Shown here in pieces: positions 4,035-39,894 of a stretch of DNA of 64,000 nt. The notes under the pieces are model-generated. The model was not told where the DNA came from. It saw only the letters and a program-made list of their open reading frames with translations, and did no database searches. The DNA is from Clostridia bacterium (GTDB taxonomy: Bacteria > Bacillota > Clostridia > Christensenellales > CAG-138). The position numbers and the translations under genes are program-made. The DNA is taken from positions 2,440 to 66,439 of the forward strand of contig JAUNBP010000004.1 in NCBI GenBank assembly GCA_030526995.1, written 5' to 3'. Every line of letters begins with the position of its first letter. Positions within the stretch are counted from its first letter, which is position 1.

Positions 4035-4036
4035 CT

Positions 4037-7153: not shown

Positions 7154-7168
7154 AGTGGAGGAAAAGCG

Positions 7169-9001: not shown

Positions 9002-9100
9002 TTATTTCACACCTTTTAACGATTGCTTTTTATTTACACCGCAAGGGGTACACCACAACGGCAATGGGCAGCAATTGACAATAACTGAATAACAAAAACA

Positions 9101-9145
9101 AGGGCTTCCAAAGTCAGCGATTGACCACGGAAGCCCTTATTTCAA
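9101..9145 (+). terminator. Putative intrinsic terminator after the GmrSD-like gene
   Basis: The stem is AGGGCTTCC (9101-9109) paired with GGAAGCCCT (9129-9137), with an inner GTCA/TGAC helix, followed by TATTT. The loop is long, so confidence is only moderate. Confidence 0.4.
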
Positions 9146-10590
9146 GCCTTTTTCAGCACTTTTCGGCTGGAGAGGGCTTTCTCTATTGTATCAAAATCTG
9201 CATTTACATAGACCCCGCCTGCGGCAGTGGCGGTATGTTCGTTTCCTCCGCCGATTTCACGGAGCAATACGGCGCAAGCGCCAACACCGTTATGACCTTT
9301 TTCGGGCAGGAGAAGGTGGACTATAACGCCAAGCTCTGCCTAATGAACATGGCTGTCCATGGTTTGAATGCGAAGATTGTTTCCGGCGACGAGGCCAACA
9401 GTTTTTATCACGATGCGCACAATCTGGAGGGCTGCTGCGATTATGTCATGGCTAATCCGCCGTTCAACGTGGATAAGGTCAAGAGCGAAACGGCGCAAAA
9501 CGCCGGACGGCTTCCCTTCGGGCTTCCCGGCGTGAACAAAAACAAGGAAATAAGCAACGCCAATTATCTTTGGATCTCCTATTTTTACGCATATCTGAAC
9601 GAAGCAGGCAGAGCCGGGTTCGTTATGGCGTCCTCGGCAACGGACAGTCAAGGCAAGGATAAGGAGATAAGAAAACAACTTATAGAAACCGGTCATGTGG
9701 ACGTGATGATGTCGGTCAGCAACAATTTTTTCTACACCAAAAGCCTGCCCTGCTCTCTGTGGTTCTTTGATAAAGGCAAGGCGGGAGCCATCCGCGATAA
9801 GGTTCTGTTTATAGATTCCCGTAACTACTATACAGCCGTTGACCGAACCCTCAACGAGTGGAGCGAGTGGCAGATGAAAAACCTGAACGCAATCGTGTGG
9901 CTGCACCGCGGGGAGACGGAGAAGTATCGTGCTTTGCTCGATGAATATAACAACGAACTAAAAAACCAGTTCAAAATAATTGATTGGCAAGCCGATATGA
10001 TGTCACGGATGACCGACAGTTATTATTATGTGCCATTGCTCACATATGCACAAGGGTTTCAGTCAACCTGCGATTGCATTAGTTCCGTTTGGGATTGTAT
10101 GGCACAGGAATCGGCAATTAATGGTTTTATGTCAATGCAGACTGCACAGGTGAAGGCTTTTGTAAACAGCGTAGATGAACAACTGCAAAACAAGCCGAAA
10201 TCGGAATGGACCGGTTTTGCGCAAAGCTACGGTGTTTCAAAATGGCGTGGATACAAAAAATCCGTACTCCAATTGCTCGATCATCAAACAGAGCAGCTAA
10301 AAGACTTGCTCTCGATAATTGAGGAAGCTCGTTGGCTGACCGACAAATTTGGAGATGGCGTATATGCGGATATTCCGGGGCTTTGCCGTGCGGCAACGAT
10401 TGCGGAAATCAAAGAAAAAGGCTGGTCGCTGACGCCCGGCGCCTATGTCGGAGTTGCTCCCGCCGAGGACGACGGCGTGGACTTTGCAAGCCGCATGAAG
10501 GAGATACATGCAGAGTTGCTCACCTTGCAGGAGGAGTCGAACAGGTTGATGAAAACCATCTCGGAGAATATGGAGGAGATGGGGTTATGA
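9121..10590 (+). pseudogene. hsdM: 5'-truncated type I methyltransferase subunit M (N-terminal about 150-200 aa missing)
   Basis: Recognisable HsdM homology starts at SAM motif I (IYIDPACGSGGMF) only about 30 codons into an ORF with a TTG start. NPPF (VMANPPFNVDKV) and the long C-terminal region are present. No HsdM N-domain or FxTP region is seen upstream; the upstream 120 nt is a terminator-like hairpin. Confidence 0.7.
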
Positions 10591-11759
10591 TTTTTTTAAA
10601 TAAAGTAATGCTAAACCCGCATGTGTCTTTAAAAAAGGGCAAACAATACCCGTTTGTCGAGATGGCAAATGTTGGATGTTTCAAAAGGGAACCCGAAAAA
10701 GTTACTATGAAGACGTTCGAATCTGGTGTTAAATTTGAAGATGGAGATACAGTAATAGCAAGAATAACCCCTTGCTTACAAAATGGAAAAGGGTTTTATT
10801 GTCATGGAATAGGTAAGGGATTTGGTTCAACAGAATTTATTGTTTTTAGGCCACGAGATAAAAGTGTTTATGGCAAGTATCTCTATTACTTAATGCAAAC
10901 CAATGACATGCGCGAAAGTCTAATTAAATCAATGGTTGGAGCAACAGGCCGCCAGCGAGTTAACAATGATGTGTTTAACAGAATTGATGTGAATTTTCCT
11001 CTATTTGAAATCCAGCATCGCATTGCCGACATTCTTTCCGCCTACGACGACTTAATTGAAAACAACCAGAAGCAAATCAAGCTGTTGGAGGAAGCGGCGC
11101 AGCGGTTGTATAAGGAATGGTTCGTTGACCTCCGCTTCCCCGGCTGGGAAACCACGCCCATTGTAGACGGCGTACCGGAGGGGTGGGAGAAAAGAATCGT
11201 TAGTGATTTCGGTGAAATAATTACAGGGAAAACTCCTTCCACAGCAAATTTGGATTATTATGGCGGGAATATCCCTTTTGTTACTATACCTGATATGCAT
11301 GGACAAATATTTACATTAGCAACTGAAAAGACATTGACCAAAGCAGGTGCGAATACACAGGAAGGAAAATATCTTCCTAAAAATGCAGTAATGGTCTCAT
11401 GCATTGCTACGGTCGGTCTTGTGAATATTGCAGCAGAAATTTGTCAAACAAACCAACAGATAAATTCTGTGATTCTTAATGAAGAAAAGGATTTGTACTT
11501 CTTTTATGAATCAATGAAACGCATAAAAACTCTATTAGACGGTGTTGGTAGCAATGGTGCAACTATGACTAATGTTAACAAGACTAAATTCAGTAATATT
11601 AACGTGCTGTATCCAACAGAAGCGTTAGTGAGCAATTATCACGATTTTTGCTTGACTATCTTTGAAAAAATATTGAGTTTATCTGCATCTGTACGAAAAG
11701 CACAACAAGCCCGCGACCGTCTGCTGCCCAAGCTGATGAGTGGAGAATTGGAGTTTTAA
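10587..11759 (+). CDS. hsdS: Type I R-M specificity subunit S
   Basis: The ATG at 10587 overlaps the stop of the truncated hsdM (ATGA). There are two TRDs with a central conserved region (IADILSAYDDLIENNQKQIKLLEEAAQRLYKEWFVDLRFPG) and a C-terminal ARDRLLPKLMSGELEF. Confidence 0.85.
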   Translation: MIFLNKVMLNPHVSLKKGKQYPFVEMANVGCFKREPEKVTMKTFESGVKFEDGDTVIARITPCLQNGKGFYCHGIGKGFGSTEFIVFRPRDKSVYGKYLYYLMQTNDMRESLIKSMVGATGRQRVNNDVFNRIDVNFPLFEIQHRIADILSAYDDLIENNQKQIKLLEEAAQRLYKEWFVDLRFPGWETTPIVDGVPEGWEKRIVSDFGEIITGKTPSTANLDYYGGNIPFVTIPDMHGQIFTLATEKTLTKAGANTQEGKYLPKNAVMVSCIATVGLVNIAAEICQTNQQINSVILNEEKDLYFFYESMKRIKTLLDGVGSNGATMTNVNKTKFSNINVLYPTEALVSNYHDFCLTIFEKILSLSASVRKAQQARDRLLPKLMSGELEF

Positions 11760-11760
11760 A

Positions 11761-12420
11761 ATGGATAACTTCTTAAAATGGGCGAGTGAAAATAGTGCGG
11801 TTATTAATCTTATAAGCGTTGTTATTGCTTTATTGTCATTAATCGTTACAAGCCTATTAACGGTCTTGATAATAAAGCAAACAACTCACCTTAATCGTAA
11901 GCAAGTGCAAATGGAGCAGGAGATAAACACACAACAGGTACAGATGCAGAAACGTCAATTATGCGTCGATACATATCCGTATAAACGCGAGATTTATGCT
12001 AATTTATTCGCTGTTTTTGCTGTGTGCCAGGGCTTGACTCAAACGGTTAAGCTCGAACAGTTGCTGTTAATGGATTGTGAAAAAGTGTTTTCATACTATA
12101 AGTTTATTCAAGAAGCAAGCGTGCCAGATGTTAAAGCAGTGTTTTGGAGCTTGAGAGAAGCCCAATTTGTAATGACAACCGACATATCTTCTGCTATACT
12201 GGAAATACGGCAAAAATTTGACGATATGTGCGGTTGCTTTTGTTCGCTCGATGCTTTATCTAAAGTATTGAAAACGGAGAAATTGTCGACAGAATTGGAA
12301 AAAATCAAAAGGCACAATGTAACTCAAGGATTACGGCTGTGCAATGAAATACTTGCGTATTCGGACTATATGGAGTCAGTTATGCCAGATGCCATGAACA
12401 TCGGCGGGATAGAGCGGTAA
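11761..12420 (+). CDS. Hypothetical membrane-anchored protein (219 aa) embedded between hsdS and hsdR
   Basis: The ATG lies 1 nt after the hsdS stop. One N-terminal hydrophobic helix (AVINLISVVIALLSLIVTSLLTVLII) is followed by a predicted helical soluble region. No family was recognised. Confidence 0.6.
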   Translation: MDNFLKWASENSAVINLISVVIALLSLIVTSLLTVLIIKQTTHLNRKQVQMEQEINTQQVQMQKRQLCVDTYPYKREIYANLFAVFAVCQGLTQTVKLEQLLLMDCEKVFSYYKFIQEASVPDVKAVFWSLREAQFVMTTDISSAILEIRQKFDDMCGCFCSLDALSKVLKTEKLSTELEKIKRHNVTQGLRLCNEILAYSDYMESVMPDAMNIGGIER

Positions 12421-12509
12421 ACTCCTCAGGTCTTGTAGCGAAGGACTGGAAAAGGCTTAAAAAAGCAAAAATATCATTTATAAAAAAAGAGCATCAGTGA
12501 GGATAATTT

Positions 12510-15500
12510 ATGAGCTACGAATACTCCGAAAACATATTGGTGCAGAACAGCGCTGGAAATGTCTTGCATGACAGGTTGGACTGGGATGTTGTGTACGCTT
12601 ACAATACCGAGGTGTTGGGCGAGAACGGAACCTTGGGGCGGCGCTCGTACAAGGAAATTGTGTTAGTGCGGTATCTGAAAAAGGCGCTGTTTGCTCTAAA
12701 CGACTGGATGACGGAAGAGTATGCTAATTTTGCAGTCAAAACGCTTTGCGCCTACACCGCCTCTGCCTCTTTAATGCAGACCAACGAGGAGAAGTATTTT
12801 ATGCTCCGTGACGGCATTCCTATACAGGTGAAGAAGTCGAACGGCACGTATGAAACAAAGTATGCCCGTGTATTTGATTTTGCAGAGCCTGAAAACAATC
12901 ATTTTCTCGCCGTCAAGGAGATGAAAATTCACGGGGAGCTGTATCGCCGCCGCACCGACATTGTGGGTTTTGTCAACGGTATTCCCCTGCTGTTCGTCGA
13001 GCTGAAAAAGCAGACGGTGGATGTGAAAGCCGCCTATGACGGCAACTATACGGATTATCTGGATACCATTCCGCAGTTGTTCCGATTCAACGCCTTTCTG
13101 ATGCTCTCCAACGGTTTGAAGGCAAAGGTCGGAACGATGGGCTCGAAATATGAGTTTTTCCACGAATGGAAGCGTCTTAAAGAAGATGAGGCAGGTGCGG
13201 TCGACTTGGAAACCATGCTGCTCGGCATTTGTGACAAGCATAATTTTATGGACTTGTTTGAAAACTTCATCCTCTTTGACCATTCGGGCGGCAAGACTGC
13301 GAAAATTCTTGCCCGCAACCATCAGTATCTCGGCGTCAATGAAGCTGTGGCGTCCTACAAGGCAAGGAAGTTGAAAGACGGCAAGCTCGGCGTGTTCTGG
13401 CATACACAAGGCAGCGGGAAAAGCTATTCGATGGTGTTTTTAGCGCAAAAGATTCGCCGCAAATTTGCCGGCTCTCCGACCTTCGTTATTCTGACCGATC
13501 GGGACGAGCTGAACAAGCAAATTTCCGACACCTTTGAAGCCTGCGGCTGCCTAAGCGGGGTAAAAGCAAGCAGCTTTATTCCGGAAAACGGTGCCAAGCT
13601 GGAAGCCATGCTGCGGGGCAATCCAAGCTATATCTTCACGCTGATACACAAGTTTAATCAGCCCAACCCAACGCCCATCGTGCCAAACCATGATATCATC
13701 ATCCTGTCGGATGAAGCGCATCGGACGCAAAACGGAATCTTTTCGGACAATATGTGCAGGATGCTCCCAACGGCTTCCCGAATCGGTTTTACAGGCACTC
13801 CGCTTTTCAGATACGATAATATCACTGAACGCACCTTTGGCAGCTATGTTTCGATCTATGACTTCAAGCGGGCTGTGGACGACGGCGCAACCGTGCCCCT
13901 ATACTATGAAAATCGAAGCGATATGCTCGGCATTGAAAATCCCGATATCAACGACGAGTTGTTAAATGCAATCGAAGCAGCGGATTTGGATGTGAGCGCA
14001 CAAGCAAAGCTCGAATCCGAGCTTGCCAAGGACATTCATATTATCACGGCAACGCCGCGCCTCGATGCCATCGCAAGGGATTTTGTCGAGCATTACTCCG
14101 AGCTTTGGACAACCGGCAAAGCCATGTTTGTCTGCGTAAACAAAGTAACCTGTGTGCGCATGTACAACCTTGTTGAGCATTACTGGCAGAAAAAGATTGC
14201 GGAGCTTGAAGTCAAGCATTCGGTGGCCTCGCAGCAAGAAGCGCTGGAGCTTGAACGCAAAATTGCATGGATGAAAGAAACCGAAGCGGCGGTAATAATC
14301 AGTCAGGAGCAAAATGAAATCCAAACATTCAAAAATTGGGGACTGGACATTTTGCCGCATCGCAAGAAGATGGAAACGCGGGAGATGGACAAGGAATTCA
14401 AGGATCCCGATAATCCGTTTCGCATCGTATTCGTCTGTGCAATGTGGCTGACCGGTTTTGACGTGAAAAGCCTTGCCACCGTTTATTTGGACAAACCTCT
14501 GAAAGCCCATACGCTGATGCAGACCATTGCCCGTGCCAACCGTGTGTGCGACGGAAAGAGCAACGGGCTTATCGTGGATTACATAGGAGTTGTAAAGGCT
14601 TTGCGGCAGGCGCTGGCGGACTACACCTGCGCGGGCGGCGGCAAGGGCGCAAATGATCCCATACCCGATAAATCGGAGCTTTTGAAAAAGATTGCCGACA
14701 CAATAATCAGCATCGAAAAGCATATGGCGGAGAACGGTTTTTCACTGAAAGCCTTGGTTGAGGCAGGCGATTTTGCAAAGCTATCATTGGTGGCGGCGGG
14801 TGCCAATGCAATGTGCGCAACGGACGACATAAAAAAGAGGTTTGAAATTCAGGCAAGAGAGCTTTTCCGTATGTTCAAATATGTTGAAAAGCGCGAGGTA
14901 TCGGACGAAACCCACCGTTACAAAAACGCCGTCAGCGCGATTTATGAGCAAATGCAGCAAAAGCGCATTCGCTCCGATAACTCGGCGCTTATGGCGAACA
15001 TTAACGAGATCGTCGGCAATTATATTCGGGTTGAGCGAGCCACGGACAGCCCTGCCGAAAGCAAAAAGTTCGATATAAGTAGTATAGATTTTGACCGACT
15101 GCGTAAAGAATTCGAGCGAGTTAAAAATAAAAATCTGCTGATGAAGGATTTGCAGTCGCTTGTCGAGGAACGCCTTGCCAAAATGTTGCGAGATAATCCT
15201 TTAAGAATAAACTACTATGAAAGATACCAAGAAATTGTGGACGAATACAATAAGGATAACAAGAAGGATGAAATCTCCGTTGTGTTTGAAAATCTGATGA
15301 AGCTGGTGGGTGAGCTGGACGACGAGCAGAAGCGATATATAAAAGAAGGGTTCAACAGCGACGAGGAGCTTGCAATCTACGATCTGCTTTTCAACGATTC
15401 CCTGTCAAAAGAAGATATTAAAAAGGTCAAGGCACTGGCTCAGAATATGCTGTCGAGAATCAAGGCCCGCATATGCGAGCTTGACCGCTGGACGGATAAG

Positions 15501-15641
15501 GAAGAAACTCGTGCAATCATTGATACGATGATTCGTGATATGCTGTTTACGGACCTGCCCACAAGTTATGACGATACGGCGCTTGGGCGATACCGCCAGC
15601 AGGTATTTGAATATGTATATACGGCATATCCGGCAGCGTAG
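12510..15641 (+). CDS. hsdR: Type I restriction endonuclease subunit R
   Basis: Walker A is HTQGSGKSYS and the DEAH box is IILSDEAHRTQNG. It has helicase motif VI-like QTIARANR. The product is 1043 aa. Confidence 0.9.
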   Translation: MSYEYSENILVQNSAGNVLHDRLDWDVVYAYNTEVLGENGTLGRRSYKEIVLVRYLKKALFALNDWMTEEYANFAVKTLCAYTASASLMQTNEEKYFMLRDGIPIQVKKSNGTYETKYARVFDFAEPENNHFLAVKEMKIHGELYRRRTDIVGFVNGIPLLFVELKKQTVDVKAAYDGNYTDYLDTIPQLFRFNAFLMLSNGLKAKVGTMGSKYEFFHEWKRLKEDEAGAVDLETMLLGICDKHNFMDLFENFILFDHSGGKTAKILARNHQYLGVNEAVASYKARKLKDGKLGVFWHTQGSGKSYSMVFLAQKIRRKFAGSPTFVILTDRDELNKQISDTFEACGCLSGVKASSFIPENGAKLEAMLRGNPSYIFTLIHKFNQPNPTPIVPNHDIIILSDEAHRTQNGIFSDNMCRMLPTASRIGFTGTPLFRYDNITERTFGSYVSIYDFKRAVDDGATVPLYYENRSDMLGIENPDINDELLNAIEAADLDVSAQAKLESELAKDIHIITATPRLDAIARDFVEHYSELWTTGKAMFVCVNKVTCVRMYNLVEHYWQKKIAELEVKHSVASQQEALELERKIAWMKETEAAVIISQEQNEIQTFKNWGLDILPHRKKMETREMDKEFKDPDNPFRIVFVCAMWLTGFDVKSLATVYLDKPLKAHTLMQTIARANRVCDGKSNGLIVDYIGVVKALRQALADYTCAGGGKGANDPIPDKSELLKKIADTIISIEKHMAENGFSLKALVEAGDFAKLSLVAAGANAMCATDDIKKRFEIQARELFRMFKYVEKREVSDETHRYKNAVSAIYEQMQQKRIRSDNSALMANINEIVGNYIRVERATDSPAESKKFDISSIDFDRLRKEFERVKNKNLLMKDLQSLVEERLAKMLRDNPLRINYYERYQEIVDEYNKDNKKDEISVVFENLMKLVGELDDEQKRYIKEGFNSDEELAIYDLLFNDSLSKEDIKKVKALAQNMLSRIKARICELDRWTDKEETRAIIDTMIRDMLFTDLPTSYDDTALGRYRQQVFEYVYTAYPAA

Positions 15642-15740
15642 GCGGAGCGGACTTGGGGGCTTGAGATCGAACATGTTGTATTCGAATATCTTCGAGATAA
15701 TTTAGCCACAATCAAAGCAACTATTGAGAGAGGTTTGAAT

Positions 15741-17354
15741 ATGAATGATGCAATACATCAAGGAAAAGTCATAAAGTACCTGAGAGACTATCCAAATGTA
15801 GGGGTCTTAATACCAATATATGGAAAGATGTCGAAGCTTGGGACTGATGCTTTTTTTCAATGCTGTTTAGCACCAATTGAACTTGTTAAGGAAGAGATGA
15901 AAACGGATTGTACGAATAACTGGAGTAAGTGTACCCCGGGCTTTACGCAATGCACGTCTGGGGATGACAGTCAAATCGTCTATCATCGATTTGGCAACGG
16001 GGATGGCTTTGAGCCACTTATTATAGAACGAAATTTCGATGGACTTGGTATTGATAATAGTCTTGAAGTATCCGAAGAATTCAGGCTTATTAACAACCTC
16101 TGTTTTGACCGTGTAAAGAACGAATATGTCGATCCGGAAAACGAAACAACTGTAGTCAAAATCGAAAATGGATTGGTAACAATTCACAAGAACTATTTAA
16201 AAAGATTTTTAGCGGTAAAACAAATGTCGCTCCTTGTTCATCTTAGCAGTCGCGCTCACAACGATGGTGTTGACCCTGAAATAGAGCAAATAAGCAAGCC
16301 GATTTGTCTTGACGGAAAAAACACAACTATATCTTACGGCATAGATCATTTTGCCAAGTCGGAGAGGAATTACTCAAGTATTTATGCGAAAATGTTTATT
16401 AATGGGTGCAATCTATGCGATTGTGGGTACTGGCCCTATTCAGAAAGGCAAAGGAAATATGAAGAATTCATTGTAGGTGTTGATAATTCCGGGAAAGATG
16501 TTACTTTTACATCAGATCCCAATCTGCTAAATGGACACGGTAAAATGAATGAGAATTCACCCCACTATTTTACACCGATATTCTTTAAGCGTGCTGTTCT
16601 GCAAAAGTATTATGACTCTCCAAAAAAATATGAAATCGGTGGTGGGTTCCTGCGTTGCGGCAACAAGTGGCTTTTATACATTGACAACCAAAGTGCGGAT
16701 TATGTCGTTGCCTATCTGGGCGATCTGGGCAGGGATTTACCGTCGCAAAGTGAACAGCAACACTGGTGGCAATACAATATAAGCATTGATGGTGAATTAA
16801 GCAGGGCAAAATGGCAGCGTGATTTTGGCGGAAAGTTTACTGACCCTGATTCACCGGTTTTTCTGTTTCAGGAAAAATACAAATTAGTAAACGAACTGTA
16901 TGAGGAACAGCTCGGATGGACATTATTCTTGCCCCTCAATACCGATGATACATATAATTTTACCGGACTGCGCATTCCTTTGAGTAATGCTCAGCCGGAG
17001 TTCGATATGCAGATTCTTTGCCTGGTCAAGGTGCTTATCGATTCATTTAATGAGAAGGAACTATCCGCAGCTTGCGACAATAACGCATCGACTCCCAAAC
17101 ATAGTATAGGGAAATTTGAGCAATTTCTGAAGGTTAAAGGGGTGAAAGATTATGAAACCCATATCCGTTTTCTGAGAGACTTACAAGGACTTAGGTCAAC
17201 CGGAATAGGTCATCGCAAGGGAAAATACTATGTAAAAACCGCTAATAAATTCGGGTTGCCGGAAAAAGATTTCAAAACAGTATTCATTGAAATCATTGGT
17301 AAAGCTACGGAGTTTCTAAGCTATGTTCAGGACATTGTGCATGAAATACATTAA
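15741..17354 (+). CDS. Hypothetical protein (537 aa), no recognised family; C-terminal R-x5-H (HEPN-like?) motif
   Basis: It is a long AT-rich ORF with GAGAGAGG upstream of the ATG at 15741, about 100 nt downstream of hsdR on the same strand. The C-terminal helical region contains LRSTGIGHRKG (nt 17193-17213). Confidence 0.65.
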   Translation: MNDAIHQGKVIKYLRDYPNVGVLIPIYGKMSKLGTDAFFQCCLAPIELVKEEMKTDCTNNWSKCTPGFTQCTSGDDSQIVYHRFGNGDGFEPLIIERNFDGLGIDNSLEVSEEFRLINNLCFDRVKNEYVDPENETTVVKIENGLVTIHKNYLKRFLAVKQMSLLVHLSSRAHNDGVDPEIEQISKPICLDGKNTTISYGIDHFAKSERNYSSIYAKMFINGCNLCDCGYWPYSERQRKYEEFIVGVDNSGKDVTFTSDPNLLNGHGKMNENSPHYFTPIFFKRAVLQKYYDSPKKYEIGGGFLRCGNKWLLYIDNQSADYVVAYLGDLGRDLPSQSEQQHWWQYNISIDGELSRAKWQRDFGGKFTDPDSPVFLFQEKYKLVNELYEEQLGWTLFLPLNTDDTYNFTGLRIPLSNAQPEFDMQILCLVKVLIDSFNEKELSAACDNNASTPKHSIGKFEQFLKVKGVKDYETHIRFLRDLQGLRSTGIGHRKGKYYVKTANKFGLPEKDFKTVFIEIIGKATEFLSYVQDIVHEIH

Positions 17355-17578
17355 TCTCAATCCAATCAAGCACAAAACAAAGCATGGGTAGAATAAAATC
17401 GCACATTTGACAACCAAAAACTGGGGAGTATAGGTTTGGAATCAAATAATCCCCGTCTTGAATGTAATCGATGTTCGTAGCCATAAAACTCACCTCCTGT
17501 CATCAGCGTAACCGGAGGTGAATTGAAGTGCAAATATGCGAATTGGTTTTGAACTAACGGACATCGGTCGCACGACCC

Positions 17579-27507: not shown

Positions 27508-27510
27508 CAA

Positions 27511-27673
27511 TGAAATTTGCCCTTCGGGCAAGTGAAATGGCTTCGCCATGAAATATTTGCAGGGCAAATGTGAAATGTGCTGTGGCACATAGGGCAAATT
27601 TTATTTCATATCGAACGAAGTGAGATATTTCATGCCGAGCGCAAGCGAGATATTTCATATTGCACTGCAATAT
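27511..27673. repeat. Array of short perfect hairpins punctuated by TGAAAT / ATTTCA
   Basis: Five perfect hairpins are present. They are TTGCCC-TTC-GGGCAA (27517-31), ATGGC-TTC-GCCAT (27537-49), ATTTGC-AGG-GCAAAT (27555-69), ATGTGC-TGTG-GCACAT (27575-90) and ATATTGC-ACT-GCAATAT (27657-73). TGAAAT precedes the left-hand units, and ATTTCAT recurs at 27604, 27628 and 27653. Confidence 0.7.
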
Positions 27674-28859: not shown

Positions 28860-29196
28860 GTAATTTCCCCTCCTTTATCTCAACCGCTTTTGCGGTTAAA
28901 TCCCCTCTCTCATACCCTTGCTTGCAACGACCTCGAATAAAAGGCTTGACAGCGACCAGTGAACCTTCGCAGCGTGTTTTGTATAATAATAACACAACTT
29001 TTAGAAAAATCAACAAAAAAGTCATTTTTTGTAATAAATCATGAACCGCAGAATTTTGCAGGCAAACGGCAAAAACGGCATGGTAGCGGGCTTTTTGTGA
29101 GTTTTAGAAGTTGTGTTTTGTTTGATTCAGGTATTGGTTCAGGGGCTTAAAATGCATGAATTGTTTGTCGGGTGAGGTGGCGGTTTGGTGGGGGCG

Positions 29197-29327
29197 GCGG
29201 GCGGATGGTATCCGCCCCTACGGGGGGCGGTGCGTTGGTTGAGTTCACCGTGGGCCGGCAACCATGATATCCGACCGTACGGGAGGGTGGGCGGTGGGAC
29301 GGATAATATTCGGCCGTGCGGCGGGGC
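29197..29327 (+). repeat. GC-rich REP-like palindromic units, three copies (one intact, two degenerate)
   Basis: The intact unit GGGCGGATGGTATCCGCCCCTACGGGGGG forms the hairpin GGGCGGAT/ATCCGCCC. Degenerate copies lie at about 29252-29287 and 29297-29326. The same unit recurs at 35118-35195. Confidence 0.7.
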
Positions 29328-29408
29328 GGTTTTTGGGGGTTTTGAGGGGATTTTGGGTTGGGTGGTAGAAGTTCTACCGAAATTCGATAAATATCTTATA
29401 GCGATAGA

Positions 29409-29437
29409 GTGAAATTGTTGGGAGGACGTGGTATAAT
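29409..29437 (+). promoter_or_regulatory. Putative sigma-A promoter of the six-gene operon
   Basis: An extended -10 (TGgTATAAT, 29429-29437) has a GTGAAA -35-like hexamer 17 nt upstream. GAGG lies 7 nt before the ATG at 29490. Confidence 0.4.
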
Positions 29438-29489
29438 TTAATCAGGCAAGAGGGGCGGCCGAGGCGCCGCATCGGAATCGAGGTTATTT

Positions 29490-30395
29490 ATGAAAGACGC
29501 TACTCTCCAACTTATTGCAACGCTTCCGTCCGTTTCGAGTCGAAGCAAGATTCAGGCCATGCTCGAATGCGACCTCATCTGCGGGGTGAGGTTGAACACC
29601 GGCGCATTCAATCCCTTCGATGAGACGGATACGGTAGGTTGGCTTGCCGAACAGTGCAGAATTTATAACAAGCGTTTTTGGGTGGATCTAAAGTGCCGCC
29701 AGCTGCGGGTCACTCGCTGGGCTGCGCCGGAGTATCAATGCATCGAGGTGAATCACACGCTCTCGGTCGATCTTCCTGCACAGCTCAGCCTGAGGGGGGA
29801 GGCGCCGCTCGATATCGTAAACATAAGCGGCAACCGAATCACGGTAAATCCCCTGCCCAAATATGCCGTAGGCGAGGGACAGTCGGTAAACGTGATAGGT
29901 AACAATTTGCAAATCCACGGCTACCTCATTGAAAAGGATATTAGATACTTGCAGGCCTGCCGTGCGCTGGACGTTTGCGACATCATGGCCTCCTACGCCG
30001 AGCTGCCGCAGGATGTGGATGAGATTTTGTCCTATCTGCCTAACGCCTCAATCACCTGCAAGATTGAGTCTATAAAGGGGGTTGACGCCATCTATGGCTT
30101 CGTTGACAAGGGTTGCAACCTCATGGCGGCGAGGGACGACCTCTACATAGAATCGGGCTTCTCCCCCGCCCTGCTTGCAATGACAAAGCGCATCGTTGAA
30201 GCGGACCCTGACGCCATCTGTGCGTCGCGCATCTTTCAGTCGCTTGAACGCAACGAGCGGGTGAGCCTCTGCGATTTTTCGGACTTGGAACTGATGTGCG
30301 CTTACGGATACCGACGGTTCATGCTCAGTGACCGCATATCCATCAACCACTTGGAGGCGGCATGTAGGGCGTGGCGGAGCTTTTTGGGGGTGTGA
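29490..30395 (+). CDS. Pyruvate-kinase-like barrel (A+B domain) protein lacking the C-terminal regulatory domain
   Basis: It is collinear with PK motifs. LIATLPSVSS matches IIATLGPAS, VDLKCRQLR matches DTKGPEIR, EKDIRYLQ matches the tekD..di motif, CKIESIKGV matches AKIEN, and LMAARDDLYIE matches MVARGDLGVE. It is only 301 aa. Confidence 0.6.
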   Translation: MKDATLQLIATLPSVSSRSKIQAMLECDLICGVRLNTGAFNPFDETDTVGWLAEQCRIYNKRFWVDLKCRQLRVTRWAAPEYQCIEVNHTLSVDLPAQLSLRGEAPLDIVNISGNRITVNPLPKYAVGEGQSVNVIGNNLQIHGYLIEKDIRYLQACRALDVCDIMASYAELPQDVDEILSYLPNASITCKIESIKGVDAIYGFVDKGCNLMAARDDLYIESGFSPALLAMTKRIVEADPDAICASRIFQSLERNERVSLCDFSDLELMCAYGYRRFMLSDRISINHLEAACRAWRSFLGV

Positions 30396-30399
30396 ACTT

Positions 30400-31764
30400 A
30401 TGGACGGACGAGCGGTACTGACCTGTGGAATGAACTACGGCGATGAGGGCAAGGGGAGCTTTGTTGATTGGCTTGCCGAGGGGGGCGCTCCCGTCATAAT
30501 GAAGTACAACGGCGGGGCGCAGGCCTCGCACACGGTGGCCTCCCCAAGCGGAACGGTTCACCGCTTTGCCCAGCTCGGCTCGGGCATGTTCCACCCCGAT
30601 TGCAGCACCGTGCTCTGCGAAAACTTTACGATGGATCCCTTCAGCTTGGCCGTTGAATGCGAGGTCTTTGCCGAAAAGCTGAACCTGCCCGCCCAACGGG
30701 TTCTCGACAGGGTTACGGTACACGAAAACTGCCTGACCGTTACAAGGCTGCATCGCTGTATAAATCGGGTGGAGCTGGAGCAGCTTGCCTTACAGCGCAG
30801 CAGCGTGGGCACGGGGGTTAGCACCGCAGCGGCGGTTTTGGCTCAACACGGGATAGGGCTTCGTGCGGGTGAGCTTCAAACCCCGATACTGCGGGAGCGG
30901 TTGATGCTTCTTCAGGAGATACTGGAGCAGCGCCTGTCCATGGGCAGCTTCACCTACAATCCTGCGCTTGTCGAGGAGCTTGCCCGTGTGCGGGGACGCA
31001 ACGGGCTTTTGCATATGCTTCGCGAATACGATACCCTGTTTCAAACCTACCGCATCCGCACTGTGTCAAGCCTTGAAGCCTTTGAGGGCAGGCACCTCGT
31101 ACTTGAGGGGTCGCAGGGGCTTTTGCTGGACAGGAAGTACGGCATCCTGCCGCACACAACGCAGCTCGACACCACCGCCCTTTGGGGGAAGCGAGCCTAT
31201 CCAAAGGCAAGGGCGGTTGGAATTGTTAAGGCCTTTGCAACGAGGCACGGCGTTGGTGCCTTCCCGACCGAGGATGCAGAGCTGTCCGCCCGTCTCGACG
31301 ATCCCAATCAGGAGATAGGCAGGTACAACGGGCGCATTCGCTTTGGCCACTTCGATGCGGTTCTGACCCGATACGCCCAAAGAGTAAACGGCGTAGATGA
31401 GCTGCACGTGTCCTGCTTGGACAGGCTTACGGGCCTGCCCGAGCTTAAAATCTGCGTCGGCTACAGCTTTAACGGTGAGCCCGACGAGGACTTTGACCGT
31501 CTGTTCGCTTGGGAGCCTTCAAAAATCGGCGTGATTATTCGGGAGGTGCTGAGTTTGGGGAGCAAGGCGGACTTGTATCTTAGCCGCTGCACGCCGCTGT
31601 ACCTAAGCCTTCGCAGCTGGGATGAGGACATATCCGCTGCAAAGTCCCTTTGTGAGCTGCCCAAGAACTGCCGCAGCTACCTTGACGAACTCGAACGCTG
31701 CACCGAGATTCCCGTTACGGCGGTGTCCGTAGGTGCTACTCGCTGCAAGAAACTGAAGCGATGA
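30400..31764 (+). CDS. Adenylosuccinate synthetase (PurA) family paralog
   Basis: The P-loop is NYGDEGKGSFVDW, and YNGGAQASHTV matches GGxNAGHT. LVLEGSQGLLLD matches EGAQGxxLD, FATRHGVGAFPTE matches TRVGxGPFPTE, and NGRIRFGHFD matches TGRxRRxGWxD. The ATG at 30400 is 4 nt after the upstream stop. Confidence 0.75.
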   Translation: MDGRAVLTCGMNYGDEGKGSFVDWLAEGGAPVIMKYNGGAQASHTVASPSGTVHRFAQLGSGMFHPDCSTVLCENFTMDPFSLAVECEVFAEKLNLPAQRVLDRVTVHENCLTVTRLHRCINRVELEQLALQRSSVGTGVSTAAAVLAQHGIGLRAGELQTPILRERLMLLQEILEQRLSMGSFTYNPALVEELARVRGRNGLLHMLREYDTLFQTYRIRTVSSLEAFEGRHLVLEGSQGLLLDRKYGILPHTTQLDTTALWGKRAYPKARAVGIVKAFATRHGVGAFPTEDAELSARLDDPNQEIGRYNGRIRFGHFDAVLTRYAQRVNGVDELHVSCLDRLTGLPELKICVGYSFNGEPDEDFDRLFAWEPSKIGVIIREVLSLGSKADLYLSRCTPLYLSLRSWDEDISAAKSLCELPKNCRSYLDELERCTEIPVTAVSVGATRCKKLKR

Positions 31765-31806
31765 GGAGCCCTTGCCCTTCATTGGAGTCAAATACAGGAG
31801 GTAAAC

Positions 31807-32379
31807 ATGAATCTTGAATTTCTAAAAACCGCCCCCAAACCGTTCTTTATCCTGATTGCGGGAGCCTCGTGCAGCGGAAAGACGACGCTCGCACGCAAGC
31901 TCGCAAACGAGCTTGAGGCCTATGAGCCCCTTCTGCTCTGTCAGGACAACTGGTTTTGTGACCTACCCAACATCCCCCGTGCCGCTAACGGCTATCTCAA
32001 TTTGGAGTGTGCGGAGGCGTTTTGCTTGGAGGAGTTGCGCACTGCCGTGTTGCAGCTCATGCAGGGGAAGGACATCCTGTTGCCGCAGTACGATGTGGCT
32101 GCCAACAGGCGCAGCGGGCTTCAAACGGTTGCCTCCCGCCCCGTCGTGATATTGGAGGGGCTGCACACCATCCTGCTGTTTCATAGGATGCTGCAAAACC
32201 GCCACTCCATCTTTGTGAACACGCCCAAGCAGGTCTGCTGCGAGCGGCGGGTGCTTAGGGACACGAGGCTGTTTGGCATCGACGCTGAGCGGGTGAGAAC
32301 ACACTTTAACGAGGTAATCTATCCCTTCTACGCCCCGTACATCGCCCCGCAAAGGGAGATGGCGGATGAGCTGGTATGA
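31807..32379 (+). CDS. Uridine kinase / phosphoribulokinase-family P-loop kinase
   Basis: Walker A is IAGASCSGKTTLARKL. It also has CQDNWF (the sqDxfY region), VVILEGLH and ERRVLRD, which are typical of the Udk/PRK family. Confidence 0.65.
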   Translation: MNLEFLKTAPKPFFILIAGASCSGKTTLARKLANELEAYEPLLLCQDNWFCDLPNIPRAANGYLNLECAEAFCLEELRTAVLQLMQGKDILLPQYDVAANRRSGLQTVASRPVVILEGLHTILLFHRMLQNRHSIFVNTPKQVCCERRVLRDTRLFGIDAERVRTHFNEVIYPFYAPYIAPQREMADELV

Positions 32380-32400
32380 GAAATAGAAACGGAGGCTGCT

Positions 32401-33444
32401 ATGACACGTAATGACCTGTACAAACTTTTGATACGCTGCAAACGCCCGCATGAATTTTTCGGCGCAGTTGCAGATGAGGATGCGCTTAAGAAGCTGTACT
32501 TCAGCTTTGCAAAGCTGTTGCATCCCGACACGGCTTCTTCGGATGAGAAGTACATCTCGGAGGAGGCGATAAAACGGCTTAACGAGCTGTACGATATGGG
32601 AAGAAAGGAGCTTTTGGACGGCATCTATTCCGTAAGCAGCGTTACGGCAAGGTATAGCTCCATGAGCCCGCTGTTCTCCCTGAATATACGCAGTAAGGAG
32701 TATCACTTCTATGAATACATATTCGACGGGGAGGTTGCGGATGTCTACCGAGGCGTGTGCAACGGGCAGGTAGTCTGCCTCAAACATGCAAAGCTCTCCG
32801 AGGATGACGCACTCTTGGAGGCGGAGTACGATACGCTGATGCAGATTGCGCACGTCCTTCTGCCCGTGATGCGCGAAAAGCTCACAATCAACGGCACCAC
32901 TGCCCTTATCATGGACGAGGTGGAAGGCGTTATGCTTACGGAGATTATTGAGCAGTACCCCTCGGGTATCCCCGTTGAACACATCCCTTGGATATTGGAG
33001 CGGTTGTTCAGCGTGGTGGGTTATCTCCACTTTAACAAGATTGTTCACGGGAATCTGACCTCGGAAAACGTGATGCTCAACAAGGCAAACCACAAGGTTT
33101 CGACCGTGGGCTTTTCGTTCCATATCCCCAATGCGGATTCCCCCGACAGTAGATATAAGACCCGAAATCCACGCTACTGTGCGCCGGAAATCAGCAAGAT
33201 TGCACGGGTAACCCCCGCTGCCGACATCTATTCCATAGGCAGAATTGCCATCGAACTGCTCGGCGGCGACCTTGACACGAACACGCTGCCCTCAAGCATT
33301 GACCCTCGTTTGCGGCTCTTCATCGGAAAACTGACAGAGCCCAATGTGAGCAAGCGACCCTATGACGCATGGCGGTTGTGGGATGAACTCATTGCCCTTC
33401 GGCAACAGGTATTCGGACCCAAACGGTTTATACCGTTAATATAA
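32401..33444 (+). CDS. J-domain (DnaJ-like) fused to a Ser/Thr-kinase-like domain that appears catalytically dead
   Basis: The N-terminus has an intact HPD (FAKLLHPDTASSDEK). The kinase fold retains VCLK (VAIK Lys), CAPE (APE) and DIYSIGRIAIELLGG. The catalytic loop reads HGNLTSEN instead of HRDLKxxN, and no DFG Asp is present (STVGFSF). Confidence 0.7.
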   Translation: MTRNDLYKLLIRCKRPHEFFGAVADEDALKKLYFSFAKLLHPDTASSDEKYISEEAIKRLNELYDMGRKELLDGIYSVSSVTARYSSMSPLFSLNIRSKEYHFYEYIFDGEVADVYRGVCNGQVVCLKHAKLSEDDALLEAEYDTLMQIAHVLLPVMREKLTINGTTALIMDEVEGVMLTEIIEQYPSGIPVEHIPWILERLFSVVGYLHFNKIVHGNLTSENVMLNKANHKVSTVGFSFHIPNADSPDSRYKTRNPRYCAPEISKIARVTPAADIYSIGRIAIELLGGDLDTNTLPSSIDPRLRLFIGKLTEPNVSKRPYDAWRLWDELIALRQQVFGPKRFIPLI

Positions 33445-33464
33445 AACATAAGGAGGAACTTATT

Positions 33465-34412
33465 ATGGGTGGAGCAAGTTATGACAGAGATGTGTACAGT
33501 TCAAGCAGCACGGGTAGTTGGAGCGGCAGCACCGTATCGCATAAGGTGTTGAGCAAGTCAAGTCTGGATTCCTGTATGTTGCCAACGGACAGGATAATCG
33601 AAAGTACCGCTAAAACGCCGATTGTGATTCTGTTGGACGTGACGGGTTCAAACATCGCCTTTGCGAGAATTGTGTACGACAAGATGCCCATGCTTTACGG
33701 GCAGATTGAACAGCAGGGCTACTTGGAGGACTTCGATATCTCCGTGTGCGCCGTGGGCGACGCCTATTGCGACAGGTACCCTTTGCAGGTTGCGGACTTT
33801 GCCAAGGGTGCTGCAATCGATGACTGGCTGAGTCAGCTCGTATTGGAGGGCGGCGGCGGAGGGCAGTTCTGCGAGTCCTATGAATTGGCGGCCTACTATA
33901 TGTACCGAAATACGCGCTTTCGCGCAGACGCCAAGCCCATCCTGTTCTACATCGCCGACGAGGCGCCGTATGACACGGTCAACCCCGCACAGGCAAAGGC
34001 CATTGTGAGCGATGAATCCACGTTCAACGGCGATCCCTTCCCGCTTCTGCGCGAGAAGTTTGGGGAGCGGGTGTTCCTGCTAAAGCGGCCCTACAATGAT
34101 GCAACGGAGATTGCATGGAGCAGGTGCCTGCCCTCGAAGAAGTACCAACAGATAATCCGTTTGGGCAGCGGGGAGGAGCGCTCGGTAGTCGACCTGATAC
34201 TCGGCATCATCGCCCTCATGTACGGAACTCGCTCCGTTTCGGACTATAAGGTGGATATGATCAATCGCGGTCAGGACGATGAGAGGGTTCGCTCGGTTAC
34301 CAAAAACCTGAATCCGCTTGAAAAATCGCTCGCCTTAATTCAGAACGTTTCGGGGCTCGATGCGCTGAAAAACGCCTCTAAGCGCACTTCGTCACCTTCG
34401 AAACGGCTGTAA
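33465..34412 (+). CDS. von Willebrand factor A (vWA)-like protein
   Basis: The MIDAS-like start of the Rossmann strand is PIVILLDVTGSN. It is followed by GGGGGQFCESYELAAYY and the FYIADEAPYD strand, in the usual vWA order. Assignment is by pattern only. Confidence 0.5.
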   Translation: MGGASYDRDVYSSSSTGSWSGSTVSHKVLSKSSLDSCMLPTDRIIESTAKTPIVILLDVTGSNIAFARIVYDKMPMLYGQIEQQGYLEDFDISVCAVGDAYCDRYPLQVADFAKGAAIDDWLSQLVLEGGGGGQFCESYELAAYYMYRNTRFRADAKPILFYIADEAPYDTVNPAQAKAIVSDESTFNGDPFPLLREKFGERVFLLKRPYNDATEIAWSRCLPSKKYQQIIRLGSGEERSVVDLILGIIALMYGTRSVSDYKVDMINRGQDDERVRSVTKNLNPLEKSLALIQNVSGLDALKNASKRTSSPSKRL

Positions 34413-34458
34413 GGTCAAAACGGTGGATTTTTCCTCACTGTAAGCGAAAGGAGTTTGT

Positions 34459-35046
34459 ATGCTGAATATTCCGTCGTATGCGTATATTAACCGCATTGAG
34501 AGCCGAATAAGTTTCGAGAAGTTTCCCGAAAGGAGATTGGAGTGGTCGAGAATCTGGTTGGGCGCCTTTGAGGACTTGCGCAATAACCGCTTTTATCAGA
34601 TGGATGACGGCACGCTGCTGTTCCAAAAGATAGCGGGGGCGTCCACCGAGGCCAAGGGTGAGCTGGTTAGGGAGTTTGGAGACGGGCTTGTTTTTGTCAA
34701 CTCCGATCCCAATGCCGGTATGATAATTAATGCGCTTGCTGCGGTTTATGCCACGAGGAAGGGGAAATTTCCCCTTCCCATCCCCGCAGAAAACGATTAT
34801 TCCGTATTTGTGTCAAGCGTTGCGGGCTTTCCGAATTGCGTTATGCTTGCCCTGCTCGACCATATAGAAAAGCACAATCCCGAATATGCGGGGGAAACGG
34901 TTCCTAAAAAGCAGCTTTACAAGATTCGGCTTATGCAGGATATGCCGCAGGATGCCCTCAATGCGTTTTGCGAAAAGCTAAAGTTGGTGCCGGAGTTCTG
35001 CCCGTGGGCGGAAACAAGGCTCTATACCGCCGATATGCCGTATTAA
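34459..35046 (+). CDS. Hypothetical protein (195 aa), last gene of the operon
   Basis: It is on the same strand, 46 nt after the vWA-like gene, with protein-like composition. No family was recognised. Confidence 0.5.
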   Translation: MLNIPSYAYINRIESRISFEKFPERRLEWSRIWLGAFEDLRNNRFYQMDDGTLLFQKIAGASTEAKGELVREFGDGLVFVNSDPNAGMIINALAAVYATRKGKFPLPIPAENDYSVFVSSVAGFPNCVMLALLDHIEKHNPEYAGETVPKKQLYKIRLMQDMPQDALNAFCEKLKLVPEFCPWAETRLYTADMPY

Positions 35047-35075
35047 TAAGGGGCGGGCTCCGTTTTTTATGCATG

Positions 35076-35098
35076 AAAAGTCACTTCGGTGGCTTTTT
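35076..35098 (+). terminator. Intrinsic terminator of the six-gene operon
   Basis: AAAAGTCAC-TTCG-GTGGCTTTTT forms an 8-bp stem with one G-U pair and a UUCG loop, followed by a T-run. Confidence 0.6.
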
Positions 35099-35117: not shown

Positions 35118-35195
35118 GGGCGGGCGGATGATATCCGCCCCTACGGGGGGTGGGGTGTTCCGGGCGGGCGGAGGGTATCCGCCCGTACAGGTGGG
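35118..35195 (+). repeat. GC-rich REP-like palindromic units, two copies
   Basis: GGGCGGGCGGATGATATCCGCCCCTACGGGGGG (35118-35150) is almost identical to the unit at 29197-29227. A second copy, CGGGCGGGCGGAGGGTATCCGCCCGTACAGGTGGG, lies at 35161-35195. Both have the same orientation as the upstream copies. Confidence 0.7.
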
Positions 35196-35226
35196 TAGGG
35201 TGTTTCGGGTGGGCGAAATAGTTCGC

Positions 35227-38980: not shown

Positions 38981-39733
38981 CTATCCCCTGCTGTTCTTTA
39001 TCCTGTCTGCAACCATGAACATGAACTGGGAGTTGGAGGGCGTTGCCCGCATGGGATCGTAGGTGTTGCCGAAATAGTCCTGCAAGACGTTTATATCCGC
39101 CCTCGACCATGCGCAATCTATGGCGTGGCGCATGGCATGTTCTATGGAGGAGGCGTTTGTCTTGTAGGTCTCGCCCAGATAGTCGTATATGTGCCTGCAG
39201 ACCGATAGCTTTATCGGGGTGGTCAGGGCTGCAATCGTCTTTATACCCTCCCGAAGGAAGCGAAAGCCTATCAGGTACGGCGGGATTCCGAGTTCAATCA
39301 AGCTGCTCGACGCCGCCTTCTCCAATGCCCTCGGAGTCGTCGGGGTGTAGACGTCCTGCTCGCTTTGCAGCGCACACAGCGACCACACCTGCGAGGCGAG
39401 CACGTTGCAGTCTATCGGCTTTATAAAACAATGGGCTATTTCGTCCCTTATATGCGGTATCTGAGGCAGGGACAGCCTGCTTGCAAGCGCAAAGAACAGC
39501 GGCTTGCGTTTGTAGGGTATCCGAGCTGCCACGCTTATCACATCGGTTCCGTCCACCTGTGACAGCTCCAAATCGACAATCAGTATATCGGGGGCGTCCC
39601 TTGATAGCAGCTCAAGCGCAGCAGGGCCTTGGCTTAGATGGGGCAGCCACCTAAGATTGCCCTGACGCTTTACAGCCACCGACAATGCCTCGGCAATCGC
39701 ATAGTCCTCGGTTAAAATTCTAATCGTTTTCAT
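38981..39733 (-). CDS. Spo0A-like response regulator (REC + Spo0A C-terminal DNA-binding domain)
   Basis: The C-terminal domain resembles the Spo0A signature (ELGIPPYLIGFRFLREGI...SSIEHAMRHAIDCAWSRADINVLQDYFG...PSNSQFMFMVADRI). The REC domain has ED, D (IVDLEL) and K (IKPI). The ATG at 39733 follows GGGGAGG. Confidence 0.6.
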   Translation of the reverse strand: MKTIRILTEDYAIAEALSVAVKRQGNLRWLPHLSQGPAALELLSRDAPDILIVDLELSQVDGTDVISVAARIPYKRKPLFFALASRLSLPQIPHIRDEIAHCFIKPIDCNVLASQVWSLCALQSEQDVYTPTTPRALEKAASSSLIELGIPPYLIGFRFLREGIKTIAALTTPIKLSVCRHIYDYLGETYKTNASSIEHAMRHAIDCAWSRADINVLQDYFGNTYDPMRATPSNSQFMFMVADRIKNSRG

Positions 39734-39894
39734 AGTCCTCCCCTTTTCGGGCAAATTTCGCTGTGTTACGATTATAATACAGACAACGCCCTTTATGAAG
39801 GGTGAAAACAGTGCGGATTTTATCGAATTGCTTGAAAAAACTGTGAACAAAGCCCCACCTCTGCCTGCGTTTTGCGGTTTTTTGGGGGCTTGGG

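Follow-up and report, generated by a model that had tools for sequence, protein, structure and literature searches.

A five-gene cassette of divergent nucleotide enzymes, a J-domain pseudokinase and a vWA protein in Clostridia is one version of a wider module shared with phages

We analysed a 64,000-nucleotide (nt) stretch of a Clostridia bacterium genome (GenBank assembly GCA_030526995.1, contig JAUNBP010000004.1, positions 2,440 to 66,439 of the forward strand; hereafter the window), which contains a run of six genes, g1 to g6, at 29490-35046. An initial annotation made from the letters alone had proposed these six genes as a candidate undescribed system. We found that five of them form a conserved, co-evolving unit: they code for a pyruvate kinase-like (PK-like) enzyme, a PurA-like ligase, a Udk-like kinase, a J-domain pseudokinase and a von Willebrand factor A (vWA) protein. 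The window holds the Firmicutes version of a module far broader than that six-gene observation. The invariant core of this module is a vWA protein with a metal ion-dependent adhesion site (MIDAS) together with the PurA-like ligase. The PK-like enzyme is usual in cellular genomes, and the Udk-like and J-pseudokinase genes are lineage-specific additions.

The six open reading frames (ORFs) are as follows:

29490..30395, + strand: g1, truncated pyruvate-kinase-like protein (PF00224; A barrel, shortened B lid, without a C domain)
30400..31764, + strand: g2, predicted PurA-like GTP-dependent ligase of the vWA-linked 'WQG' subfamily (PF00709)
31807..32379, + strand: g3, nucleoside kinase-like protein of the Udk/PRK family (PF00485), a Firmicutes-specific addition
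32401..33444, + strand: g4, J-domain (approximately residues 1-75, HPD at 41-43) followed by a pseudokinase, assigned from profiles and motifs
33465..34412, + strand: g5, MIDAS vWA protein, assigned from an AlphaFold2 (AF2) model and Foldseek; N-terminus MGGxSYDRDVY and C-terminal KRL conserved
34459..35046, + strand: g6, lineage-specific ORFan matching only itself, with gene-like codon usage and a ribosome-binding site

All six are co-directional with intergenic gaps of 4, 42, 21, 20 and 46 nt, in agreement with the coordinates and the 4-46 nt gaps reported by the initial annotation. The start of g2 is the ATG at 30400, which is backed by its homologues and by a 454-aa database entry (P0001); on the same evidence we rejected the GTG at 30328, which would give the longest ORF.

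Using a vWA alignment as the query against one genome per GTDB species, we obtained 35 Firmicutes-type loci from gut metagenome-assembled genomes (MAGs). Within 5 kb of the vWA gene and on the same strand, a PK-like gene is found in 33 of these 35 loci, a PurA-like gene likewise in 33, a Udk-like gene in 31 and a J-pseudokinase gene in 34. Most members of the PurA-like and vWA families come from uncultured Clostridia and Bacilli of gut and rumen. When genes were called around three distant homologues, the order was the same each time (PK, PurA, Udk, kinase, vWA), with housekeeping genes on the flanks (among them ctsR-clpC, ffh-rpsP, rny and eno). The five genes are inherited together, as indicated by correlations (r 0.73-0.94) between the pairwise-identity matrices of their proteins. 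The neighbourhood is thus conserved well beyond the strain (31-34 of 35 loci colinear), a point that the initial annotation had put forward for checking. The enrichment near defence or mobile genes that had also been envisaged was not found: the flanks are housekeeping genes. A defence-island context was rejected because, after clustering of the neighbourhood ORFs, the five cassette families alone recur; the next commonest family is present in 8 loci.

The closest sequenced relative of the window cassette (locus L050) lacks g6. In this locus a 130-aa unknown gene lies between the PurA-like and Udk-like genes (4908-5300), the vWA protein is 504 aa long with an internal insertion, and a gene for an AAA_28 (NadR-like kinase) and CYTH protein (8574-9680) ends the cassette where the window has g6. 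Accessory genes of the cassette are nucleotide-related and comprise this AAA_28-CYTH gene, a second Udk-like gene and a NUDIX fusion. In 8 Bacilli-type loci a NUDIX/NrtR-type regulator gene is located around 500 nt upstream of the cassette (for example L005, 5916-6590). It might regulate the cassette, or it may merely be a syntenic neighbour.

The core pair is widespread in phages. A broad vWA alignment (A4) was too divergent to seed genome scans and clade-specific alignments were used instead. With the phage-type alignment we found at least 358 IMG/VR viral contigs with a vWA gene. We scanned 80 of the IMG/VR loci for the five cassette families only: the PurA-like gene adjoins the vWA gene in 77, and a J-domain protein is also present in 31. 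Around 200 cluster C mycobacteriophages (Bixzunavirus) match the vWA protein in a tblastn search against phage genomes and carry the core pair. In phage Rizal, for example, the vWA protein is gp251 and the PurA-like protein gp253, and gp250 has a kinase fold with HGA and an HPD J-motif. A genome announcement lists both the kinase and the PurA-like gene as conserved throughout the C1 subcluster and assigns them no function (PMC9476963). In some cluster C phages (for example ErnieJ, Cane17 and Yassified) the vWA gene matches in two pieces around 1.4 kb apart, with an HNH endonuclease annotated in or over the gap, which suggests a mobile insertion, intein or homing element, in the vWA gene. Outside this cluster, Rhizobium, Vibrio and human-faecal phages (176-207 kb) have the PurA-like gene directly 3' of the vWA gene; a 485-kb phage carries J-kinase, vWA and PK-like genes, and a 139-kb IMG/VR contig carries these three and a PurA-like gene. 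Phage neighbours of the pair include genes of nucleotide and NAD metabolism.

A genome scan with a second vWA clade gave 23 loci, which belong to MAGs of Myxococcales, Patescibacteria, Planctomycetia and Gammaproteobacteria. These loci mostly have the order vWA, PK-like, PurA-like and lack both the J-kinase and Udk; one of the two Gammaproteobacteria loci consists of vWA-PurA only. Patescibacteria loci have, 5' of the vWA gene, genes for a conserved unknown protein of around 228 aa and an AAA ATPase of around 650 aa (L062 at 3218-5876, L066 and L068-L071), and they often contain two or three vWA paralogues. This ATPase is closest to the D2 domain of Cdc48/VCP, and its family is found in 14 of the 23 second-clade loci. 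No counterpart of the J-pseudokinase was found in the Patescibacteria loci, which have the Cdc48-like ATPase and the 228-aa protein instead. A predicted link to protein remodelling recurs in two forms: through a J-domain in Firmicutes and phages, and in Patescibacteria through a Cdc48-like AAA ATPase. In 5 of the Patescibacteria-type loci a gene for glutamine-dependent NAD synthetase (NadE) lies nearby.

While the PurA-like ligase g2 matches PF00709 with an E value of 1e-70, it falls to about half of the purA equivalog cut-offs (187 versus 395.6 bits for TIGR00184; 202 versus 402 bits for NF002223), and its relatives score 89-145 bits with PurA models. It shares with PurA (EC 6.3.4.4) the fold, the P-loop GDEGKG, Asp13, His41, Gln224 and the guanine-specifying Asp333. 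Across the Firmicutes-type family D13, K16, H41, Q224 and D333 are invariant (35/35 members), T239 is likewise invariant, and the PurA catalytic and GTP-binding residues are retained in most phage and Patescibacteria copies. Judged by these residues, the enzymes look catalytically active.

The pocket for aspartate and IMP differs from that of PurA. The L-aspartate site (T300, T301, R303, R305) is replaced in the g2 family by an aromatic-(Q/N)-G sequence with a single Arg. In the vWA-linked PurA-like proteins the aspartate loop GATTGRRRRTGW gives way to a derived loop, x(W/Y/F)(Q/N)G-x(F/I/P)RxG, which is one residue shorter. The contacts to the phosphate of IMP (inosine monophosphate) are also altered (N38 to Q/H, T129 to V/C, R143 lost) and V273 is changed to H. 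The rebuilt loop and the changes at N38, T129 and V273 are a signature common to the Firmicutes, Patescibacteria, Myxococcales and phage proteins, with the exception of a Vibrio phage copy which keeps N38. Another difference from PurA is genomic, the g2-type gene being always beside a vWA gene.

PurZ is, like the vWA-linked proteins, a phage-borne PurA homologue with altered substrate use, and we considered it as an identity for g2. PurZ has Ser14 in place of the catalytic Asp (10.1101/2025.10.22.683976). The vWA-linked proteins, in contrast, keep GDEGKG with Asp13 and score 31-54 bits against a PurZ cut-off of 300 (NF038379; g2 itself 31), and the PurZ identity was rejected on both grounds. 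The genomic partner differs as well: that of the g2 family is the vWA protein, and none of the DatZ, MazZ or DpoZ neighbours was seen in annotated phage records. By profile score and active-site residues, the vWA-linked PurA-like proteins are neither PurA nor PurZ. The shared rebuilt pocket, together with scores far under both sets of cut-offs, argues that their substrates differ from those of PurA.

The second enzyme of the cassette, g1, has a pyruvate kinase barrel (PF00224, E value 2e-9, 37.6 bits versus a gathering score of 30) and reaches only 42 bits in TIGR01064, for which the equivalog cut-off is 306. At 301 aa it is short, with a shortened B lid and no match to the PK_C domain. The alignment shows that its family keeps the pyruvate kinase residues R34/N36, D66/K68, R70-R73, K191/E193, D217 and S246, with those for metal, phosphoenolpyruvate (PEP) and phosphoryl transfer among them. 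The metal and PEP residues are invariant, as are R34, N36, K191, E193 and D217. The family is accordingly a catalytically plausible mini pyruvate kinase. It shares with pyruvate kinase the barrel and these residues; it differs in its length of around 300 aa, its short lid, the lack of the C-terminal allosteric domain and its predicted translational coupling to the PurA-like gene. Every locus with gene calls shows an overlap of 8-23 nt between the PK-like and PurA-like genes, compared to a gap of 4 nt in the window.

The third enzyme, g3, belongs to the PRK/Udk family (PF00485, E value 1e-16) with P-loop and fold present, and scores below the udk equivalog cut-offs of NCBIfam (97.6 versus 220 bits and 103 versus 180 bits). 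A g3-type gene is found in 31 of the 35 Firmicutes-type loci and is absent from the phage and the Myxococcales/Patescibacteria loci. The three enzymes had been described as divergent paralogs of nucleotide-metabolism enzymes, and their scores of 42-202 bits against equivalog cut-offs of 180-432 bear this out. No other purA, pyk or udk paralogue is present in the 64-kb window.

The two remaining conserved proteins are g4 and g5. For g4, Pfam gives a Pkinase match (E value 1e-18) and a weak, sub-threshold DnaJ match. A profile of the g4-family N-terminus (19 sequences) nevertheless matches only J-domains in the PDB (72 matches, best 1e-7), and comparison of the g4 N-terminus with the J-domain of E. 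coli DnaJ gives an hhalign probability of 90%. HPD is invariant in the 19-sequence N-terminal alignment. Of the full-length Firmicutes-type copies, 3 of 34 have another sequence in its place, and among phage copies 30 of 31 retain it. By profile and motif we conclude that the N-terminus is a real J-domain. In the kinase domain HRD has become HGN (HGA or HGS in outliers) and DFG has become GFS or DYS across the whole g4 family; in phages the kinase motifs have decayed further and the Lys of VAIK is also lost. Given that the HRD motif with its catalytic Asp and the DFG motif are both replaced, we rejected the status of an active Hanks-type Ser/Thr kinase for g4, and on these motifs the kinase domain is a family-wide pseudokinase.

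The vWA protein g5 has no match in Pfam, NCBIfam or PADLOC and falls in an unannotated PHROG family (phrog_2971, 1e-32). A search of the PDB with the vWA profile returned only noise by sequence, so a structure model was needed. The AF2 model, built with 26 homologues (pLDDT 83, pTM 0.83), has integrin beta I-like and vWF A3 domains as top Foldseek matches (E value 6e-8, probability 1.0). Based on this model, g5 is assigned a vWA fold. The MIDAS motif DVTGS is invariant in the family, as are D58, T60, S62, D99 and D165. The J-domain, the dead kinase and the vWA protein had all been called correctly in the initial annotation, as profile, motif and structure evidence now attests; for g5, the suggested structure check gave the vWA fold.

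At the Firmicutes-type loci the vWA protein is the most conserved of the five cassette proteins (mean pairwise identity 0.60), which argues against a fast-evolving sensor. An exhaustive profile search placed 1202 clusters in the family at E<=1e-10. Among the listed vWA representatives that start with Met, 106 of 146 begin with MG, mostly as MGG..Y(D/E)R(D/P)V. Relatives from the MMETSP marine protist transcriptomes are fused to R3H and U-box, to U-box or to NUDIX domains (P0306, P0266, P0275, P0283), and these protist fusions keep the N-terminal MGG..Y(D/E)R motif.

The sixth gene does not belong to the conserved module. Among 5.8e9 proteins g6 has no homologue except itself, tblastn against all related loci finds no copy, and no Pfam, NCBIfam or PADLOC family covers it. 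Its single-sequence AF2 model is uninformative (pLDDT 33). While g6 is probably co-transcribed with the cassette, we regard it on these searches as an ORFan outside the conserved module, and its earlier listing as a sixth member of the system does not hold. In the same way the sensing or regulatory trio proposed earlier can be retained in part: the vWA protein and the J-pseudokinase belong to the unit, g6 does not, and the abundance in phages speaks against a simple sensor-plus-defence arrangement.

The cassette is bordered by the following elements:

29196..29334, strand not assigned: three copies of a palindrome-containing repeat of around 41 nt, 5' flank of the cassette
29409..29437, + strand: promoter-like site (GTGAAA, 17 nt spacer, TATAAT, extended -10 TG; 10/12 matches)
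35047..35098, + strand: terminator-like double hairpin followed by a U-run (minimum free energy -19.1 kcal/mol, z -3.3)
35119..35203, strand not assigned: two copies of the same repeat of around 41 nt, 3' flank of the cassette

The promoter-like site, 53 nt 5' of the g1 ATG, is a consensus match only, such sites being no more common in this region than in shuffled controls. The hairpin lies just 3' of the g6 stop and was missed by a consensus scanner. Both the promoter-like element and the shared terminator had been noted in the initial annotation and both were recovered, the first with this limit. The repeat core GGGCGGATNRTATCCGCCC is confined in the window to the two cassette flanks, with around 0.02 matches expected by chance; the repeat could delimit an insertion, or it could be a transcript-stabilising element of the repetitive extragenic palindromic (REP) type. 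An Rfam search of the region 5' of the cassette, in the window and at four related loci, gave no riboswitch or leader RNA.

We also recorded other features of the window. Antisense to g3 and g4 lies a 386-aa ORF (31963-33123, - strand), almost certainly a shadow of a coding strand with high GC at third codon positions. An intergenic Gut-1 RNA motif (RF01706, 60.4 bits versus a gathering score of 50) lies upstream of a GNAT gene at 27508-27581 (+ strand). A response regulator with a Spo0A C-terminal domain (PF08769, E value 1e-23) is encoded at 38981-39850 (- strand), which suggests that the organism belongs to an endospore-forming Firmicutes lineage. Around 12 kb upstream of the cassette, positions 1-17400 form a low-GC (0.41-0.50) restriction island with an HsdM-like methylase (887-2713), a GmrSD-type endonuclease (7169-9001) and two type I HsdR-like helicase-nucleases (4031-7153 and 12510-15641). 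A sugar operon with phosphotransferase system (PTS), glycosyl-hydrolase-1 and LevR-like genes lies between this island and the cassette.

The combination had been put forward as undescribed, and we found no profile library or searchable paper that assigns it to a known pathway or defence system. The five-gene cassette is not described in any database or paper searched: apart from the announcement listing phage genes, the open-access full text and bioRxiv that we searched contain no description of the module. PADLOC v2 has no match for g1, g2, g5 or g6, and gives only generic P-loop or kinase matches for g3 and g4.

Three known systems resemble it in part. TerY-P triads, reportedly described by Anantharaman, Iyer and Aravind in 2012, are said to consist of a vWA protein, a Ser/Thr kinase and a PP2C phosphatase. 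As in these triads, the cassette has a vWA gene beside a Hanks-type kinase fold; its kinase, however, is predicted to be dead and carries a J-domain, g5 matches no Pfam vWA or TerY model, and neither the window cassette nor the conserved neighbourhood includes a PP2C phosphatase. CbbO/CbbQ (Rubisco activase) and NorD/NorQ combine a MIDAS vWA adaptor, an AAA+ ATPase and the enzyme that they serve. The Cdc48-like ATPase gene beside the vWA gene in Patescibacteria recalls this arrangement. The present module differs from it in having no MoxR-type ATPase and, as putative clients, nucleotide enzymes, and in the window the remodeller would be indirect, via a J-domain that would recruit DnaK. Finally, the eukaryotic purinosome is assembled by Hsp70/Hsp90 and J-proteins. 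The shared concept is of purine enzymes dependent on Hsp70 co-chaperones; it is an analogy only, homology of components being limited to PurA and the J-domain.

From the observed gene content, conservation, co-evolution, fold and motif assignments and shared derived active-site signature, we infer the substrates, a GTP-recycling link, a physical complex, the involvement of DnaK and a physiological role. Our leading reading, which we consider possible and hold tentatively, is that the module is an autonomous, chaperone-coupled unit for the conversion or supply of purine nucleotides, serving phage takeover and also some bacteria. In Firmicutes the Udk-like kinase would convert a salvaged nucleoside to the nucleoside monophosphate (NMP). 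With GTP as donor, the PurA-like enzyme would place a phosphate on the 6-oxo group of a purine nucleotide, and an amine other than L-aspartate, with ammonia or a small amine as candidates, would displace the phosphate. Purine nucleotides would in this way be interconverted or derivatised outside the normal PurA/PurB logic. The PK-like enzyme would use PEP to convert the released GDP, or other nucleoside diphosphates, to the triphosphate (NTP), which we propose would make the ligase independent of the nucleotide status of the cell. The vWA protein would be an obligatory non-catalytic partner, a scaffold or regulator of the enzymes, assembled or reset by a remodelling ATPase: host DnaK via the J-domain of g4 in Firmicutes and phages, and the Cdc48-like AAA ATPase in Patescibacteria.

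The retention of HPD in the J-domain where the kinase domain has decayed supports the remodeller theme. The prevalence in lytic and large phages, the housekeeping flanks, the stable synteny and the slow evolution of the vWA protein fit a metabolic or takeover role better than classic defence. Nonetheless several points weigh against this reading. Should the pathway end in an NTP, it would lack a step for an NMP kinase, and the route to a modified nucleotide proposed in the initial annotation has the same gap. Why a salvage enzyme should need a vWA protein, a J-protein or two to three vWA paralogues is left unexplained. Most phage versions have no PK-like gene, which argues that GTP recycling is not essential to the core, and the fusions of eukaryotic vWA relatives to U-box E3 domains point to protein targeting and not to metabolism.

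Somewhat unlikely, in our estimate, is a conflict system, which would act in defence against phages or in counter-defence by them. On this view the vWA protein, together with its chaperone partner, would detect an invader or a defence signal and activate the two enzymes, and the purine pool would be drained or poisoned by consumption of IMP, GTP and PEP or by formation of a dead-end N6-substituted analogue; in phages, such a system could rebuild adenine nucleotides after deamination or cleavage of ATP by the host. Modules of vWA plus kinase or vWA plus ATPase (TerY-P triads, vWA-MoxR) are typical of prokaryotic conflict systems, and the architecture of the cassette is of this type. The patchy distribution across phyla, in phages and cells alike, the NAD-salvage genes beside the Rhizobium phage pair, the restriction island around 12 kb from the window cassette and the generic matches of the g4 kinase domain to defence-system kinases are all in keeping with conflict. 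Against it stand the lack of PADLOC models for four of the genes (g1, g2, g5 and g6), housekeeping flanks with synteny stable over 6-8 species, and a supposed sensor that evolves slowest. There is also no nuclease, pore-forming or NADase effector, and the C1-wide conservation (PMC9476963) and the adjacency in 77 of 80 viral loci are unusual for defence cargo.

We consider it improbable that the module acts like PurZ and makes a non-canonical purine (deoxy)nucleotide to be built into DNA or RNA, with the PurA-like enzyme adding an N6 substituent and the PK-like enzyme making the triphosphate. PurZ and ToyG are PurA homologues that make non-standard purines, and the rebuilt amine pocket, the abundance in large phages and the kinase-type enzyme encoded alongside would suit such a route. 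Yet the PurA-like proteins keep D13 where PurZ has Ser, no DatZ, MazZ or DpoZ-like gene or dedicated polymerase was seen in the neighbourhoods examined by annotation and Pfam, cells that carry the module would need to alter their own RNA or chromosome, and the vWA and J-proteins would have no role.

An idea that we rate as quite improbable is that the PurA-like enzyme is a protein-tagging ligase, which would join the GTP-activated C6 of a purine to a protein amine instead of aspartate. One candidate is the N-terminal Gly of the near-universal vWA MGG..YDRDV peptide. DnaK recruited through the J-domain or, in Patescibacteria, the Cdc48-like AAA ATPase would then recognise the nucleotide tag or strip it off. 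What keeps this idea alive are the U-box fusions and the links to unfoldases.

A plain cluster of housekeeping purA, pyk and udk genes is highly improbable. In its favour are enzymes that seem fit for catalysis, the housekeeping flanks and some carriers, labelled as Patescibacteria, Tenericutes and Bacilli MAGs, that may depend on salvage. Against it, the scores are one-tenth to one-half of the equivalog cut-offs, the residues binding aspartate and the IMP phosphate are replaced, the PK-like enzyme lacks a C domain, the genes show tight linkage with those for a pseudokinase and a vWA protein and occur in hundreds of phages, and pattern-limited scans found the module in only tens of 185,579 species representatives.

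Returning to the purine-conversion module that we tentatively favour, its function would bear on the annotation of thousands of genes labelled "adenylosuccinate synthetase". The vWA signature protein carries only "hypothetical protein" labels where it is named. The rebuilt pocket of the PurA-like enzyme makes new purine-nucleotide chemistry likely, and for tests of the module the genetically tractable cluster C mycobacteriophages are available. If the tagging idea were true, prokaryotes and viruses would have a counterpart of ubiquitin or Pup tagging that is based on a new post-translational modification. More broadly, the module would bear on how phages take over nucleotide pools and possibly on counter-defence, and its links to Hsp70 recruitment and to Cdc48-like ATPases suggest a previously unrecognised coupling of nucleotide enzymes to protein-remodelling machines.

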